This document shows positions 44 to 4,936 of a stretch of DNA of 4,936 nt, one piece after another (the first letter of the stretch is position 1; every line of letters starts with the position of its first letter). The DNA comes from a virus (Duplodnaviria > Heunggongvirae > Uroviricota > Caudoviricetes), in IMG/VR virus record IMGVR_UViG_2657245521_000011, positions 1-4,936 of that record, one strand, 5' to 3'. The position numbers were made by a program, and so were the translations under genes. The notes under the pieces are model-generated. The model saw only the letters and a list, made by a program, of their open reading frames with translations. It had not been told where the DNA came from and made no database searches.

Positions 44-118
44 ATGGATCGTAGACGATTTATTAAAGGTTCAATGGCTATGGCCGCCGTGTGCATTACC
101 ACTGACTTGTATTCCTGA
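44..118 (+). pseudogene. opgD: 5' fragment of host opgD/mdoD (glucans biosynthesis protein D): Tat signal-peptide N-terminus only, reading frame broken after codon 17
   Basis: ATG at 44-46 translates to [17 protein letters not shown], a twin-arginine (RRxFIK) signal-peptide start that matches my recollection of E. coli OpgD/MdoD ([21 protein letters not shown]...). From nt 95 the translation becomes ITTDLYS then stop (TGA 116-118) instead of the expected continuation. Identification rests on recalled sequence, not on a search. Confidence 0.5.
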
Positions 119-310
119 AGAGTTATTACCAATCACTTGGCTTATAGAGGATGACTTCTTCTTGTCACTTATTAAGTTGGCTACAGCAGTTAGAAAAGCC
201 CCTAAGCTGACTAAGAAAGCCAGTAGAGAAGCCAGTCCATGATGCTGGTATGCCTGATACCCGAATCCGCATGTTGCAACGAACGAAATTAGACAGATTA
301 ACTTTCTCAC
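71..310 (-). CDS. doubtful hypothetical small protein (79 aa, two hydrophobic stretches); possibly spurious or a truncated remnant
   Basis: ORF from the six-frame track. The start is GTG at 308-310 directly after an in-frame stop, with no convincing Shine-Dalgarno and no internal ATG. The coding strand is T-rich, which can give hydrophobic-looking peptides by chance. The last 8 codons are antisense to the opgD fragment, so the ORF crosses the apparent junction at about nt 95. Confidence 0.2.
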   Translation of the reverse strand: MRKLICLISFVATCGFGYQAYQHHGLASLLAFLVSLGAFLTAVANLISDKKKSSSISQVIGNNSSGIQVSGNAHGGHSH

Positions 311-866
311 GCGTCATATCTCTCTATAGGTTAAATGGCACTAAAAGCAACGCAGGATGTGCTTTGCTCTGAGCACATCATTGATTCATCTTACTAATAT
401 CTATTAATTAAAAGATAAAACTAGGGGGTTTATGGTAAAACAGGACTGGACAGTGCTGCAACACCAGTCTCTCGCCGACTATGCCAAAACGGGTATATCA
501 CCAAAAGAGTGGTGCTAAGCAGGGAGACGGATTAACACATCTGCACGTTTAGGTGAAGAGTGGACTGACCTGATACAGGTATATGATCCTGTTCTAAGCA
601 TTAATTAGTATAATCGATATTCATTCTCATTTGATGGGGCCTGTTATGCGATCCAACCTGTTACGGGGCGGCGACCGTGTGGATTCTCTCTATTTATGAA
701 TATTGTCCACTATTTGCCATTTCCGTTTTTCTCTCCGAGTACAACATGATTTCTATCCAACAAACAGGGCAACGCCGATGCCAGCACGTGCTAAACGTCC
801 ATGCCGACAAGGGACGTGCGGCAATCATAGTCGCATTGCACGCGTATAAATAACAAGGAGGGGGGA

Positions 867-1100
867 ATGCGCCTCACTGTATTAGATGATGATCCCGGCA
901 GGAAGATTGATATCAGAGTAGAGCGGTACACTGTCTATCTTGATGGTGTTGATGTTAAGCGCGCGCTCACTGCTGATGATGAGAAAGGTGAAGTAATCGC
1001 TGTTGCATGTGATGAATATGGCCACGCGACCATAGAGAACGGCGAAGTGAAGAGGCAGATGCTTTACGGCTTAGTGAGGATTGAACGGTGTCCGCACTGA
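867..1100 (+). CDS. hypothetical protein (77 aa), first gene of the HNH/terminase gene string
   Basis: ATG at 867 is preceded by a strong Shine-Dalgarno AAGGAGG (855-861, 5-nt spacer). The stop TGA at 1098-1100 lies 18 nt before the HNH start on the same strand, an operon-like arrangement. The protein is mildly acidic and has no motif I can recognise. Confidence 0.6.
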   Translation: MRLTVLDDDPGRKIDIRVERYTVYLDGVDVKRALTADDEKGEVIAVACDEYGHATIENGEVKRQMLYGLVRIERCPH

Positions 1101-1118
1101 TTTACAGGTAATGGTGGT

Positions 1119-1472
1119 ATGAACAAAGAACCGCGCATCTATGACAGCAGATGGGGTAAAGCCCGCCAGGCATTCCTGCGCGAACATCCTTTATGCATTA
1201 TGTGTCAGGCACTGGGAAGGATTGAGCTGGCGACTGTGGTCGATCATATCACGCCACACAGGTTGAAAGATGCTCTCATAACAGGAAATCCCGCAGATAT
1301 CTCCCGGGCGCAAAAGCTGTTCTGGGACAGAGGAAACTGGCAAGGGTTATGTAAACCCCATCACGACTCAACCAAACAGCGTATGGAAAAGAGCGGGAGA
1401 ATGACTGGCTGTGATGCTGATGGGATCCCGCTTGACCCCGATTCACACTGGAACAGGGGGAGGGGCGGGTAA
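1119..1472 (+). CDS. phage-associated HNH endonuclease
   Basis: 117 aa with CxxC (CIMC), then DHITPH, then N in GNWQGLC, then CKPHH: the Cys/His/Asn arrangement of HNH zinc-finger nucleases. ATG at 1119 with AGGT about 9 nt upstream. It sits immediately upstream of terS, the position where HK97-like phages carry an HNH gene involved in cos cleavage/packaging. Confidence 0.85.
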   Translation: MNKEPRIYDSRWGKARQAFLREHPLCIMCQALGRIELATVVDHITPHRLKDALITGNPADISRAQKLFWDRGNWQGLCKPHHDSTKQRMEKSGRMTGCDADGIPLDPDSHWNRGRGG

Positions 1473-1686
1473 AAACTTAAATACCTTTGCAGTAAATGAC
1501 CCCCGCTTCTCCTTTCTGTGTACAACCGCGAAATGAAAAGTTTTTTTTTGGCTTGTTTTTTGGTTAAAAAACAACCTCGAATTACTTCAGTGTATTGATA
1601 TATAAGAAAATGATGAAAACAGCAAAGCTACTGTATTAAAATACATATGTGATTTAATGCAGTAGTTTTATTGGGAGGTGCCCGGC
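1473..1686. other. AT-rich intergenic region between HNH and terS; candidate cos / packaging-initiation region
   Basis: About 214 bp of non-coding, AT-rich DNA with long T/A runs (T9 at 1541-1549) and an A/T-rich inverted repeat TTGTTTTTT-ggtt-AAAAAACAA (1553-1574). In HK97-like genomes cos lies between the HNH gene and terS. The call is by synteny; the cleavage site itself cannot be identified from sequence. Confidence 0.35.
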
Positions 1687-2151
1687 ATGGCAGGGAGACG
1701 TCCGAAACCGTCCCATCTGAAAGCGGTAACCGGCAACCCAAGCAAGCGAAAACTCAATGACAAAGAGCCGTTGCCCTCACGCGAAATACCGTCGCCGCCC
1801 CCGCACCTGACCGACTGGGGAAAGGTTGCCTGGGGAAAACTGACCGTACTGCTGGATGGGATGGGAGTGATGACGGTAGCTGACGGACTGGCACTGGAGC
1901 GCCTCTGTGATATCTACGCCGATATCCTTCAGTTACGTGACACTGTCGCAGTGGAAGGCAGAACCTATACGGTACAGACAGATGGTGGATTTCTGATAAA
2001 ACCGCATCCTGCTGTCGCCATGCTGGCAGACGCTGACCGCCGTTTTAAAAGTTATCTGGTTGAATTCGGTCTGACCCCGGCCGCCAGAACGAAGGTAAAA
2101 GTTGATGGTGGAGAAAAAGACGAAGATCCGTTCAACCAGTTCTTCGGTTGA
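1687..2151 (+). CDS. phage terminase small subunit, P27 family
   Basis: N-terminus MAGRRPKPSHLKAVTGNPSKR is the characteristic start of P27-family TerS proteins. ATG at 1687 with GGAGG at 1674-1678 (8-nt spacer). The ORF-track start at 1678 is a GTG three codons upstream and is less likely. Stop TGA at 2149-2151. Confidence 0.85.
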   Translation: MAGRRPKPSHLKAVTGNPSKRKLNDKEPLPSREIPSPPPHLTDWGKVAWGKLTVLLDGMGVMTVADGLALERLCDIYADILQLRDTVAVEGRTYTVQTDGGFLIKPHPAVAMLADADRRFKSYLVEFGLTPAARTKVKVDGGEKDEDPFNQFFG

Positions 2152-3840
2152 TCCAGCCACGCAGTATGCAATGGATGTGGGTACCGGTAAGAAAATTGCC
2201 GGACCAGATATTCGTAATGCCTGTAAACGTCATTTGCGCGATCTTGAATTTGGGCATAAGCGCGGCTTGTCATGGGATACAGAAGCAGCACTACGCGCGA
2301 TTGATTTTTTTGCGAAGGTACTGAAGCTTAACGGTGGGGAGTTTGAAGGAGAACCCTTCATTCTGTTGCCCTGGCAGTGCTTTATTGTGGGATCCATTTT
2401 TGGATGGAAACGGCGGAACGGGGCGCGCCGCTTTCGTACCGCTTATGTGGAATCAGGCAAGGGATCAGGTAAATCCCCTCTGGCGGCAGGGGTTGGCCTG
2501 TACTGCATGACTGCGGATAAGGAGCCCAGGGCCGAGGTGTATGCTGCGGCGACGAAAAAAGACCAGGCTATGGTGTTGTTTCGTGATGCGGTGGCGATGG
2601 TGGATCAATCACCGGCGCTGGCACAACGTATCAGCAAATCAGGAGGGGCGGGCAAAGAGTGGAATCTGGCATTTTTGCAGACGGGATCATTTTTCCGCCC
2701 GATTAGTTCTGATGACGGGCAGTCAGGCCCACGACCACATTGTGCCTTGATTGATGAAATCCATGAGCACAAAAGCAACATTGTGGTTGAAATGATGCGG
2801 GCTGGTACAAAAGGCAGGCGTCAGGCGCTGATTTTCATGATAACTAACAGTGGTCATGACAAAACCAGCGTCTGCTATGACTATCACCGGTACGGACAAA
2901 AAGTCGCAGCCGGACAACTGGATAATGATGCATTTTTCTCTTTCATTTGTTCCCTTGATGAAAGAGATGATCCCTTCCAGGATGAATCCTGCTGGCCAAA
3001 AGCGAACCCTTCCATGGGGCATACATTTGAGGACAGTTATTTACGGGAACAGGTTGATGATGCCCGCGGTATTCCGTCCAAAGAGAGCATTGTACGACGC
3101 CTTAATTTCTGTCAGTGGGTTGATGCTGAAAATCCATGGATTAGCAGTGATGCCTGGATGGCATGCGAAAAAAAATTCGATCCTGAAGAGTTCCGGGGGC
3201 AGATTTGTTACGGAGGACTGGATCTTTCCGGCAAAAGAGATCTCACTTCTCTTTCTCTGTATTTCCCTGGAAGCAATGCGTTGCTTACTGAGTTCTGGAC
3301 GCCGCGCGATACACTTTTCGATCGCGCAAGGGTGGATCGTGTTCCTTATGACGTCTGGCTGAAGAAGGGGTATGTACACGCGCCGCCAGGTGCTGCAATT
3401 GATTATGGCTTTGTGGCAAAACGTCTGGCAACACTTGCTGCAATGTTCGACATCCGTAAGGTGGCGTTCGACAGTTACCACATTGATTACCTTTTGCCGG
3501 AACTGGATGATGAAGGTGTAAACATCCCACTGATTCCGCACGGCCAGGGATTCGGCAAGTCCGCCAAATCCGGACTGTGGATGCCGCATTCCATTGAGTT
3601 GTTTGAACAACTCATCATGGATAAAAAAATAAACATCGTACTCAACCCCTGCCTTCGCTGGTGTGCGGCCAATGCCGTTATAGAGGAGGACAAAAGCGGA
3701 AACCGTGTATTCAGCAAGCGTCGCAGCAATGGGCGTATTGATGGCGTGGTGTCCGGTGCCATGGCAATTGGTGTTGCAGGATCCTGTGAAGATGACGGCG
3801 ACGGCGATATCAGTGATTTCTTTAATGACCCCATATTTAT

Positions 3841-3844
<4 letters not shown>
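2105..3844 (+). CDS. phage terminase large subunit (ATPase plus nuclease)
   Basis: 579 aa. Walker A GKGSGKS (nt 2456-2476) and Walker B-like hhhhDE (CALIDEIHE, nt about 2741-2767), followed by a C-terminal region with conserved acidic residues (GGLDLSGKRD) as in terminase nuclease domains. N-terminal YAMDVG...CKRHLRDLE is typical of this family. Preferred start is ATG 2105 (AAGGT at 2092-2096), overlapping terS by 47 nt; alternatives are TTG 2102, GTG 2108 and ATG 2171. Stop TGA at 3842-3844. Confidence 0.9.

Positions 3845-4936
<1,092 letters not shown>

Follow-up and report, generated by a model that had tools for sequence, protein, structure and literature searches.

The window, i.e., the whole stretch of DNA analyzed here, comprises 4,936 nt of the record IMGVR_UViG_2657245521_000011. 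Within it, an initial annotation had flagged nt 95-866 as about 770 bp of AT-rich DNA of unclear origin. The features of the window are as follows (coordinates, strand, description).

1-94, + strand: host fragment, the opgD (mdoD) upstream region and first ~15 codons, ATG at 51
95-310, - strand: truncated gene for a small two-TM membrane protein, codons 1-72 of 81, GTG start at 310
311-431, no strand: AT-rich spacer (35.5% GC) separating the terS relic from the divergently oriented moron gene
356-379, in the spacer: hairpin GATGTGCT/AGCACATC
398-417, in the spacer: AT palindrome TATCTATTAATTAAAAGATA
432 to ~555, + strand: small-terminase (terS) pseudogene, N-terminal ~40 codons, phrog_370/51/32222 type, like that of Klebsiella phage RothC
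~606-745, + strand: lambda/phi80/N15-type cos, 74-79% identity to the cos sites of lambda, HK630, HK225, mEp237 and phi80 prophages (E 1e-17)
636-642, + strand: cosQ-like GGGGCCT
666-677, + strand: cosN GGGCGGCGACCG, with TTACG to its left (TTACG and cosN together, 661-677)
718-733, + strand: R3-like CATTTCCGTTTTTCTC, 13/16 to the pattern, at the lambda cosN-R3 spacing
778 to ~830, + strand: HNH_5-type endonuclease pseudogene, first ~17 codons (MPARAKRPC...), with its leader at 746-777
867-1100, + strand: 77-aa gene (phrog_24619), Shine-Dalgarno AAGGAGG at ~853-859
1119-1472, + strand: HNH endonuclease (phrog_2323, E 3e-48)
1457-1551, + strand: predicted HK97-type cos in the HNH-terS gap, outside the flagged stretch, with a G-run (1458-1469), AAATGACC (1494-1501) and a G+T-tract (1540-1551)
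1678-4693, + strand: terS (Terminase_4), terL (PF03354) and portal

The boundaries given for the flagged interval are confirmed, since identity to opgD ends and identity to prophage DNA begins at nt 95, and nt 866 directly precedes the ATG of the 77-aa gene. The stretch is, however, just moderately AT-rich, with 43.5% GC compared with 50.8% in 867-4693, and its minimum falls in the spacer. The four elements originally listed are all present (the - strand ORF at 71-310, a start-less + strand frame at 96-242, a 28-codon ORF at 432-518, and the palindrome), and no full-length gene covering most of the region was found. Nucleotides 95-866 are 100% identical to the equivalent interval of intact prophages in other assemblies, and the identity between the window from nt 95 to beyond 4693 and the intact prophages L003-L009 is 99.4-100%. 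Assembly GCA_910665095.1 is one source of an intact prophage of the L003 type. The order of the 77-aa gene, the HNH gene and the packaging genes is conserved in these prophages; in the window, the portal gene is interrupted at 4693/4694 by an ISEc31-like element of the IS3 family. Leftward of the position equivalent to nt 95, the intact prophages carry a 302-aa gene and then a holin/endolysin cassette, which in intact relatives lies on the same strand 1-2.7 kb upstream. As noted initially, this lysis cassette is missing from the window; it was lost through deletion, and the flagged stretch itself is phage-derived and not host DNA.

The host fragment shows 97-98% identity to opgD in 5418 of the 5426 complete E. 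coli genomes. Searches of the region against the same 5,426 genomes by megablast and blastn found the prophage interval in none of them, the sole matches being to opgD (1-104) and, at ~77% identity, to the phi80/lambda cos. The junction at 94/95, which is known from this window alone, can be read directly from the sequences (gtgc/ggtaccagcg in opgD versus gtgc/attaccactg in the window) and places prophage DNA from within the 81-aa gene directly after opgD codon 15. An exact search for the 79-aa ORF across this junction gave no match. The earlier suggestion that the locus may be a deletion scar is therefore true of this junction but not of the whole of 95-866, which is 100% identical in intact prophages. 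Since every close copy of the entire region shows 91-100% identity, selection on its non-coding parts is poorly measurable.

The segment at 432 to ~555 is the start of a terS gene. It matches phrog_32222 (E 4e-9) and the terS family phrog_51 (E 5e-6) at profile positions 1-28, shares 78% DNA identity with the start of the RothC terS gene, and gives 60% identity over 38 aa by tblastn, across the stop; homology to RothC terS is gone by about codon 40. The "28-codon ORF" at 432-518 is created by an in-frame TAA at 516-518. In the related locus L093, the match is likewise limited to profile positions 1-39. The resulting ORF differs by lineage, with 28 aa in the window, 58 aa and a different stop in L093, and a frameshifted form of 42 aa in the Klebsiella locus L099, where the frame is lost after codon 7. 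A full-length terS ORF (~240-280 aa) with oligomerization and TerL-binding parts is not found at 432-555, and the pN/pS ratio of the relic is ~1.0 (0.120/0.115), as under neutral drift. Thus, the N-terminal-only match, the nonsense, frameshift and different-stop changes of the individual lineages, and the pN/pS ratio near 1 show that this terS relic is dead.

To the right of the terS relic lies a lambda-type cos site. Its alignment to lambda (NC_001416) and mEp237 covers roughly -50 to +70 relative to cosN and has no indels; beyond this range, the similarity stops. The homology to the lambda-like cos sites (lambda, phi80, 21, N15, mEp237, HK225) extends to the 12-nt core, to a motif at the cosQ position, and to an R3-like TerS site equally far from cosN (bp 53); an I2-like region, ATTCTCGCTATTTATGA, is also present. 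The cosN core reads GGGCGGCGACCG in the window, GGGCGGCGACCT in lambda, and GGGCGGCGTCCG in N15 and mEp237, so that the sole difference from lambda is at bp 12, as in N15 and mEp237. The position of cosQ, ~24-30 bp to the left of cosN, is conserved, whereas the sequence of this 7-bp element has changed: in the alignment, the GGGTCCT of lambda and mEp237 corresponds to GGGGCCT in the window and to GAGTCCT in L093, i.e., to different single changes. Exact-pattern scans for the cosN variant of the window found it in neither the GTDB species representatives nor IMG/VR. No second R-like element was found in 734-866; unlike the lambda-like cos sites, the window has no R2, I1 or R1, no rR2-carrying terS/Nu1, and a fragment of an HNH pseudogene instead. 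A lambda-type Nu1/gpA terminase is not encoded downstream of the site, which is followed by the HNH pseudogene, the 77-aa gene, the HNH gene, the Terminase_4 TerS and the PF03354 TerL; in contrast to lambda-like phages, the terminase of this phage belongs to the HK97/P27 class, which uses another cos. The functional cosB is known in two forms, a complex R3-I1-R2-R1 array and a simple N15-type array of a single R3 with rR2 inside terS. Since a single R3 can suffice as cosB in N15 (PMC4669245), the missing R2 and R1 do not prove inactivity.

The fate of this element in related genomes was followed in 80 loci with HNH_5 genes. The cosN site is lambda-like in 5 of them and altered by 2-4 core substitutions in another 12; all remaining loci have it deleted or lack it, with deletions of 2-3 bp or complete loss. 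The HK97-type motif is meanwhile nearly invariant. With ~5/80 related loci near-canonical at cosN, the copy in the window is among the best preserved; L127 and L134 have an intact cosN, whereas L106 reads GGGCAAGAACCG. Across the loci, cosN is less well conserved than either the I2-like segment or the leader just before the HNH start. The lambda-type cos is an orphan site and presumably inactive. A PICI or a capsid-forming PICI was considered in view of the lambda-like cos beside HNH, terS and terL. This reading was rejected, as the intact relatives are full-length prophages in which genes for lysis, portal, protease and capsid are all present, and as the cos is eroding.

The third relic, at 778 to ~830, shares the ATG and nine codons with the intact HNH gene of L093, which encodes 120 aa (PF01844/PF14279). 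It has a 2-bp deletion between 806 and 807, and its homology to the intact gene ends at ~830, at a recombination joint with the present module. The HNH catalytic motif (residues 73-116 in L093) is absent from the relic, which is distinct from the intact HNH gene at 1119-1472. Leader and start of this HNH gene recur in about 35 IMG/VR loci.

The present packaging module carries its own candidate cos. The order of genes in the window is that of HK97 (gp74 HNH - cos - gp1 TerS - gp2 TerL), and the HNH-terS gap contains a sequence homologous to the HK97 right end, with a G+T-tract where the HK97 TerS binds; the gap differs in length (205 bp in the window vs. 368 bp in HK97), and the HNH genes are only about 66% identical in DNA sequence. 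Over the final 52 nt of the HK97 genome, the predicted site is 77% identical; the physical end of HK97 aligns at ~1510, and cleavage would be expected near this position. HK97 TerS binds at +15 to +29, a G plus A-tract (PMC11331095), and the G+T-tract at 1540-1551 is likely the TerS site of the phage in the window. Where the HNH DNA of other loci has only ~68% identity, conservation of nucleotides 1456-1547 still reaches 79-87%. The G-run and ATCAAA motif occurs 3' of the HNH gene in 41 of the 80 HNH_5 loci, and in L093, the sole locus with its terS located, it lies 120 bp upstream of terS. We predict that the functional cos of the phage itself is this HK97-type element. The lambda-type cos was rejected for this role, given the HK97-type cos in the HNH-terS gap of the window, of L093, and of 41/80 loci.

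An alternative role for the lambda-type cosQ-cosN-R3 array is that of a working signal in trans, through which a lambda/phi80/N15-type terminase would cut and package the prophage or adjacent DNA. The orphan site would then be retained because a co-resident lambda-like terminase packages the HK97-type prophage or neighboring DNA in the manner of cos-PICIs, an idea to which we give little credence. The cosN site is intact except for bp 12, which varies among functional phages (PMC4669245), R3 is placed at the lambda spacing and the single-R3 cosB of N15 is functional, PICIs do exploit their helpers via lambda-like cosQ and cosN (PMC9026076), and the lambda-type cos element is found upstream of HNH in several IMG/VR lineages. 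However, cosQ, which is reported to be highly conserved among functional lambda-like phages (PMC4669245), is independently mutated in the window and in L093, and cosN in most relatives has been substituted, shortened or lost. Moreover, the site has no neighboring gene for an Rpp-like or Nu1-like specificity factor, and the prophage of the window genome, being defective, would be unable to provide a replicating concatemer. Taken together, a role in trans is very unlikely; if it were true, the prophage would have two cos sites of different classes and a second, "borrowed" transfer route.

To the left of the three relics, the - strand ORF, which had been regarded as doubtful, is a genuine conserved gene. 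In the window, its ORF extends to nt 71 via antisense opgD, whereas the intact 81-aa ORF is found at 4947-5192 of the intact prophage L004, where it overlaps the 302-aa gene by an ATGA stop/start. Homologs of the 81-aa protein from five genera (Klebsiella, Cronobacter, Serratia, Pantoea and Enterobacter) align over the full length with 59-93% identity, and most have exactly 81 aa, with a few called at 84-112 aa. The pN/pS ratio of the gene is 0.20-0.28; it is thus a real gene under purifying selection. The + strand frame at 96-242, formerly interpreted as the possible 3' end of a lost gene, was rejected, since it has no family matches or homolog and runs antisense to this selected gene. The 81-aa protein matches phrog_27656 (E 4e-7) and, more weakly, the holin family phrog_217 (E 0.0035). 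A holin function was rejected on the basis of the weak phrog_217 score, the better score of phrog_27656, the antisense position outside the lysis cassette, and the coupling to the 302-aa gene, which is not a lysis gene.

This partner encodes an LPO_1073/Vpar_1526 protein and is absent from the window by deletion. Wherever the 81-aa gene was found, the 302-aa gene follows it, and the pair always lies antisense between lysis and packaging genes, both in Terminase_2/Terminase_3 phages (Pantoea) and in Terminase_4/HNH phages (E. coli, Klebsiella, Cronobacter). Phage morons are genes of independent origin that have been inserted between modules of the late operon. The cassette resembles them, since it is oriented against the late genes and occurs in unrelated phages where the lysis and packaging modules adjoin, but the copy in the window has been destroyed by truncation of its first gene and deletion of the second. 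The suggestion of a decayed moron locus holds for the - strand ORF, the truncated gene 1 of a two-gene moron, but not for the bulk of the stretch, as 432-830 consists of relics of packaging modules. No match to the PADLOC 2.0 anti-phage defense profiles was obtained for the 81-aa, 302-aa or 77-aa protein, and the literature on Vpar_1526/LPO_1073 yielded nothing useful. Outside the main finding, the cassette offers a lead as a mobile, selected and uncharacterized moron across Enterobacterales.

Between the moron gene and the terS relic, the spacer may contain a relic of the start of a second terS gene, of the Terminase_2 type, at nt 335-394 (MALKATQDVLCSEHIIDSSY and a stop). This segment has a weak tblastn match to the N-terminus of Pantoea terS (47% over 17 aa, E 0.005) and lies 24 bp from the start of the moron gene, compared with 20 bp in Pantoea; profile searches with it gave no match.

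The flagged stretch had also been proposed to be regulatory, and in its fullest form this proposal would make 95-866 a divergent promoter/operator region that directs the moron leftward and the 77-aa, HNH and terminase genes rightward, with the palindrome at 398-417 as the operator. The spacer is the most AT-rich part of the stretch and its best conserved part relative to L093 (94.7% identity), it holds both the palindrome and the hairpin, and the moron requires a separate promoter at some point upstream of nt 310. However, scans of both strands of 95-866 found no sigma-70-like promoter or intrinsic terminator, a relaxed scan reached at most 8/12 matches, and an Rfam search gave no match in the interval. 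In Pantoea, the moron starts just 20 bp from an intact terS start, and thus a long control region is unnecessary; in addition, the equivalent of 505-866 is missing outright in the Klebsiella locus L099. By analogy with lambdoid phages, transcription of the packaging genes would start at the late promoter, which lies upstream of the lysis genes. A regulatory part could span ~120 bp (311-431) at most, and the reading of the whole stretch as regulatory DNA is unsupported and very improbable.

It is scarcely credible that functional small proteins are made from the short ORFs at 432-518 (58 aa in relatives) and 677-853; one such product could be a decoy made of the TerS N-terminus, which would hinder packaging by competing phages. 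The ATG and Shine-Dalgarno of the terS-start ORF are kept in three lineages and PICIs do encode TerS-binding or TerS-like interference proteins (PMC9026076), but this ORF drifts neutrally, ends differently in each lineage and is too short for the terS DNA-binding domain. ORF 677-853 has no family matches and runs through the remains of the cos site and of the frameshifted HNH gene. Neither ORF should be annotated as a gene.

Thus, we propose that nt 95-866 are very probably ordinary prophage DNA, composed of a cut-off membrane-protein gene and dead remnants of packaging modules left by successive recombination, with no function of their own. The interval is fully accounted for in these terms, and no new biology is needed. 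In the intact prophage, it lies between the head-packaging genes and the antisense moron with its two genes. Recombination would have repeatedly replaced the module downstream of the lysis genes and moron, each swap leaving a remnant. Read from left to right, the stack opens with the 5' end of a RothC-type terS gene. Next come the cosQ, cosN and R3 elements of a lambda/N15-type cos and then an HNH_5-type HNH gene, reduced to its leader and ~17 initial codons; from ~831, the current module follows, with the 77-aa gene, HNH, HK97-type cos, terS, terL and portal. The order of these recombination events is inferred from the arrangement of the segments. In the window's genome, a later illegitimate deletion brought opgD codon 15 up against the truncated 81-aa gene, taking the last nine codons of this gene, its 302-aa partner, the lysis cassette, and everything further left.

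Lambdoid and HK97-like phages are mosaic, and gene fragments remain at their recombination boundaries. The locus shares with such mosaic joints the different relatives of its segments (Klebsiella phage RothC, lambda-like phages, and the phiKO2/PY54-type HNH genes), as well as sharp transitions of similarity, which fall at 431/432, ~606-616, ~745 and ~830, and staggered left boundaries of homology among its relatives, which in the 80 HNH_5 loci lie at 432, ~612, 645, 659, ~750 and 778. Phage mosaicism is also mentioned in PMC4669245. The locus differs from other such joints in that it stacks at least three relics of the same module in 400 bp, which is unusually dense, and in that one of the relics is a cis-acting site and not a gene fragment.

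The stretch is therefore a good but ordinary example of recombination relics at the boundary of lysis and packaging genes. It provides a worked example in which traces of three generations of packaging modules (pac-like terS, lambda-type cos and HNH_5 module), replaced in turn and finally succeeded by the present HK97-type module, are legible within 400 bp, and it illustrates that cis-acting sites, too, may survive as fossils. For the annotation of prophages, it carries the warning that a lambda-like cosN does not identify the packaging class of the prophage in which it is found.

Nucleotides 95–866, described in the initial annotation as AT-rich DNA of unclear origin between a host fragment and the phage genes, are exactly delimited at both ends and have a GC content of 43.5%, compared with 50.8% in the phage genes. 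The features reported there are all present, namely a minus-strand ORF (71–310), a start-less frame (96–242), a palindrome (398–417), and a 28-codon ORF (432–518). The features of the window and of the related prophage locus L004 are as follows:

1–94: opgD upstream region and first ~15 codons (found at 97–98% identity in 5418 of the 5426 complete E. coli genomes)
From 95: prophage DNA
95–310, minus strand: 81-aa gene for a two-TM protein, truncated in the window (intact at L004:4947–5192, minus strand)
L004:4042–4950, minus strand: 302-aa gene
356–379: hairpin in the spacer
398–417: AT palindrome in the spacer
432–~555, plus strand: dead small terminase (terS) start fragment, from terS profile matches and DNA identity to phage RothC
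~606–745: orphan lambda-type cos, from blastn and alignment to lambda NC_001416
778–~830, plus strand: dead HNH gene start, from alignment to the related prophage L093
867–1100, plus strand: 77-aa gene
1119–1472, plus strand: HNH endonuclease, phrog_2323-type
1678–2151, plus strand: small terminase (Terminase_4)
Then, plus strand: large terminase, followed by the portal gene, cut at 4693/4694
4694–4936: ISEc31-like IS3-family element, interrupting the portal gene at 4693/4694

Searching for exact copies of the HNH protein retrieved seven prophage loci (L003–L009), whose DNA is 99.4–100% identical to window positions 95–4693 and further. Leftward of nt 95, these loci contain the last nine codons of the minus-strand ORF, the 302-aa minus-strand gene, and a plus-strand lysis cassette. 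The cassette, correctly reported as missing from the window, is placed 1–2.7 kb upstream on the plus strand, and is composed of holin and endolysin-type genes in L003–L007 and of holin/lysozyme/DUF2514 in L008–L009. The junction sequences are ...gtgc|ggtaccagcg in opgD, ...taaa|attaccactg in the prophages, and ...gtgc|attaccactg in the window; the window's genome therefore carries a joint at 94/95 that arose by illegitimate deletion or rearrangement. The proposed deletion scar is thus confined to this left edge; the remainder is unbroken prophage DNA as in L003–L009. The interval 105–866 occurs in none of the 5,426 complete E. coli genomes, and identical prophage copies were found in several draft assemblies and one metagenome scaffold. 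The opgD gene is broken after approximately codon 15, inside a Tat-type signal peptide (window 51–94), so OpgD should be missing from the source strain if there is no second copy. The ISEc31-like insertion in the portal gene is shared by L004–L007 and missing from L003, while L008 (6910–7035) carries a related IS end after window-equivalent 2027, within terS; the prophage is therefore defective in several lineages.

The minus-strand ORF, previously considered doubtful, is instead a real gene, truncated in the window. Its intact form starts with GTG and encodes 81 aa, and its stop codon and the ATG of the 302-aa gene overlap in the sequence ATGA. A database search for the 81-aa protein identified 26 homologs in Klebsiella, Cronobacter, Serratia, Pantoea, and Enterobacter (59–93% identity, 100% coverage), mostly of exactly 81 aa, with a few called longer (84–112 aa); the pN/pS ratio of the gene against three homologs is 0.20–0.28. 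The plus-strand frame at 96–242, proposed as the 3' end of a lost gene, is antisense to the 81-aa gene and has zero homologs. In all contexts examined, the 81-aa and 302-aa genes are antisense and separate the lysis cassette from the packaging genes, even though these packaging neighbors are unrelated (Terminase_2/Terminase_3 in Pantoea; HNH/Terminase_4 in E. coli, Klebsiella, and Cronobacter). With this constant position, the pair behaves as a moron. A holin identity of the 81-aa protein was rejected, as the match is weak (E 0.0035) and the gene's surroundings are unlike those of a holin. The 302-aa protein is a member of the NCBIfam family NF045477 ("LPO_1073/Vpar_1526 family"), for which our literature search found no functional work, and a PADLOC search with the moron proteins gave zero matches. 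The cassette, coupled by the ATGA overlap (window 95–310 and L004:4042–5192, both minus strand; also L093 and L096–L102), is conserved in prophages of E. coli, Klebsiella, Cronobacter, Pantoea, Serratia, and Enterobacter and is a candidate exclusion or defense moron. A G-x-QV-[ST]-G-[ND] motif is present in both proteins, in the 81-aa protein at the C-terminal tail (GNNSSGIQVSGNLTIN) and in the 302-aa protein at the N-terminus (GDGSTAIQVTGDAIIGN), which might reflect interaction or common origin of the two proteins.

The following spacer (311–431) has the lowest GC content of the interval (35.5%) and is 94.7% identical to L093; promoter scans of this spacer gave no convincing candidates. Identity among all close copies of the entire region is 91–100%, hence non-coding constraint is poorly measurable. 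The translation of nt 335–394 (MALKATQDVLCSEHIIDSSY*) weakly resembles the N-terminus of a Pantoea Terminase_2 terS that adjoins the moron at an equal distance. Profile searches for a terS relic at 335–394 gave no confirmation; a second terS start relic at this site is possible. To the right, the 28-codon ORF matches positions 1–28 of the terS families phrog_32222, phrog_51, and phrog_370, and the relic DNA is 78% identical to the terS gene start of Klebsiella phage RothC. The protein likeness spans ~38 residues and crosses the TAA codon at 516–518. In L093 this fragment forms a 58-aa ORF, and in the Klebsiella relative L099 it has a frameshift following codon 7; the pN/pS ratio of the fragment between the window and L093 is ~1 (0.120/0.115). 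Segment 432–~555 is a pseudogene fragment of a small-terminase gene.

In blastn searches of phages and E. coli genomes, segment ~606–745 matched solely the cos regions of lambda-like phages, namely lambda, HK629/630, HK225, mEp237, and phi80 prophages (74–79% identity, E down to 1e-17). In the alignment to lambda with joined genome ends, cosN (666–677) reads TTACG|GGGCGGCGACCG in the window vs. TTACG|GGGCGGCGACCT in lambda, the ...CTATTTATGAA... block is retained, an R3-like CATTTCCGTTTTTCTC lies at bp 53 from the nick with the lambda spacing, and the likeness ends at ~745. R2 and R1 were not found near this cos, nor are there Nu1/A genes downstream of it. Since N15 functions with one R3 (Feiss et al., PMC4669245), the missing R2 and R1 by themselves do not prove inactivity. 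The right half of cosN is variable in functional lambda-like phages, whereas cosQ is highly conserved (Feiss et al., PMC4669245); the window has GGGGCCT at the cosQ position vs. GGGTCCT in lambda and mEp237, a mark against function as judged from sequence. Scans of GTDB species representatives and of IMG/VR yielded no exact copy of the window's cosN variant. Just left of the cosQ position, nt 619–636 match exactly and in inverted orientation 18 nt (ATTCATTCTCATTTGATG) of the HK97 right end, 62–79 nt before the genome end, which could represent a shared host-factor site or chance.

The L093–L095 prophages, whose 81-aa gene is 93% identical, match window positions 96–825 at 91%. In these prophages, the ATG at window-equivalent 778 begins an intact 120-aa HNH gene (PF01844/PF14279). 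The window retains MPARAKRPC, followed by a 2-bp deletion, and homology is gone by ~830; 778–~830 is a dead HNH gene start. Beyond it lies a different module with the 77-aa gene and the phrog_2323-type HNH, whose closest arrangement is in L099, where the 77-aa homolog directly follows the terS relic and there is no lambda-type cos.

We compared 80 IMG/VR loci whose HNH proteins are related to that of L093 (HNH_5 loci); in ~35 of them, the DNA preceding the HNH start is homologous to the window, with staggered left limits (window-equivalent 432, ~612, 645, 659, ~750, and 778). The cosN core is GGGCGGCGACC[GT] in 5 loci, GGGCAAGAACCG or GGGCAAAAACCG in 11, and GGGAGACGACCG in one; some loci (e.g., L105 and L130) have a 2–3-bp deletion, and the remaining ones lack cosN. 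By contrast, the HK97-type motif is nearly invariant. Moreover, the single substitution in cosQ is not the same in the window as in L093, and none of the cultured phages in the collection has both an HNH_5-type HNH and a lambda-type cos, with phiKO2, PY54, and SfV sharing the HNH gene alone. This is the pattern expected of a fossil that is passed on together with the HNH leader and erodes. It seems very improbable that lambda-like helper terminases still cut the well-preserved copies. Across lineages (L105–L135), an I2-like block ATTCTCGCTATTTATGA and a leader CAACAAACAGGAC..ATGCC, ~60–90 nt upstream of the HNH start (window-equivalent 684–700), outdo cosN in conservation and may serve the HNH gene as a leader or a signal for translation.

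The phage's own cos is predicted to be HK97-type and outside the flagged interval. The HK97 genome ends after its HNH gene (gp74), and terS begins 49 bp from the left end; both HK97 and the window place the cos region between the HNH gene and terS. Window positions 1457–1506 share 77% identity with the final 52 nt of HK97, which places the HK97 end at ~1510, and several HK97-like IMG/VR contigs terminate exactly at the equivalent position. Segment 1456–1547 is 79–87% conserved in loci where the HNH DNA is only ~68% identical, and a G+T-tract (1540–1551) is positioned where HK97 TerS binds (+15 to +29; PMC11331095). L093 has GGGGGAGGGGGGATCAAATC 120 bp upstream of its own terS, and this HK97-type motif is located downstream of HNH in 41 of the 80 HNH_5 loci. 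The last bases of HK97 (...GACCGCCGCCAAA; window 1494–1510 region) read GGCGGCGGTC on the other strand and resemble the lambda cosN core GGCGGCGACC, which may be a coincidence. At 1624–1669, between the predicted point of cleavage and the start of terS, a self-inverted blast match revealed an imperfect palindrome (CTACTGTATTAAA ... TTTAATGCAGTAG), which might be a site for TerS or for regulation.

Altogether, the flagged interval is a relic stack where the lysis/moron region meets the packaging module. Leftmost is the moron gene, which the later opgD deletion truncated in the window; next come the spacer and the relic of a terS start, then the relics of a lambda-type cos and of an HNH_5 start, and finally the current HK97-type module. 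The nearest relatives differ for each relic and the similarity boundaries are sharp, which is what mosaic joints should show; the succession of recombination events is inferred. The finding is real and explained, yet ordinary.
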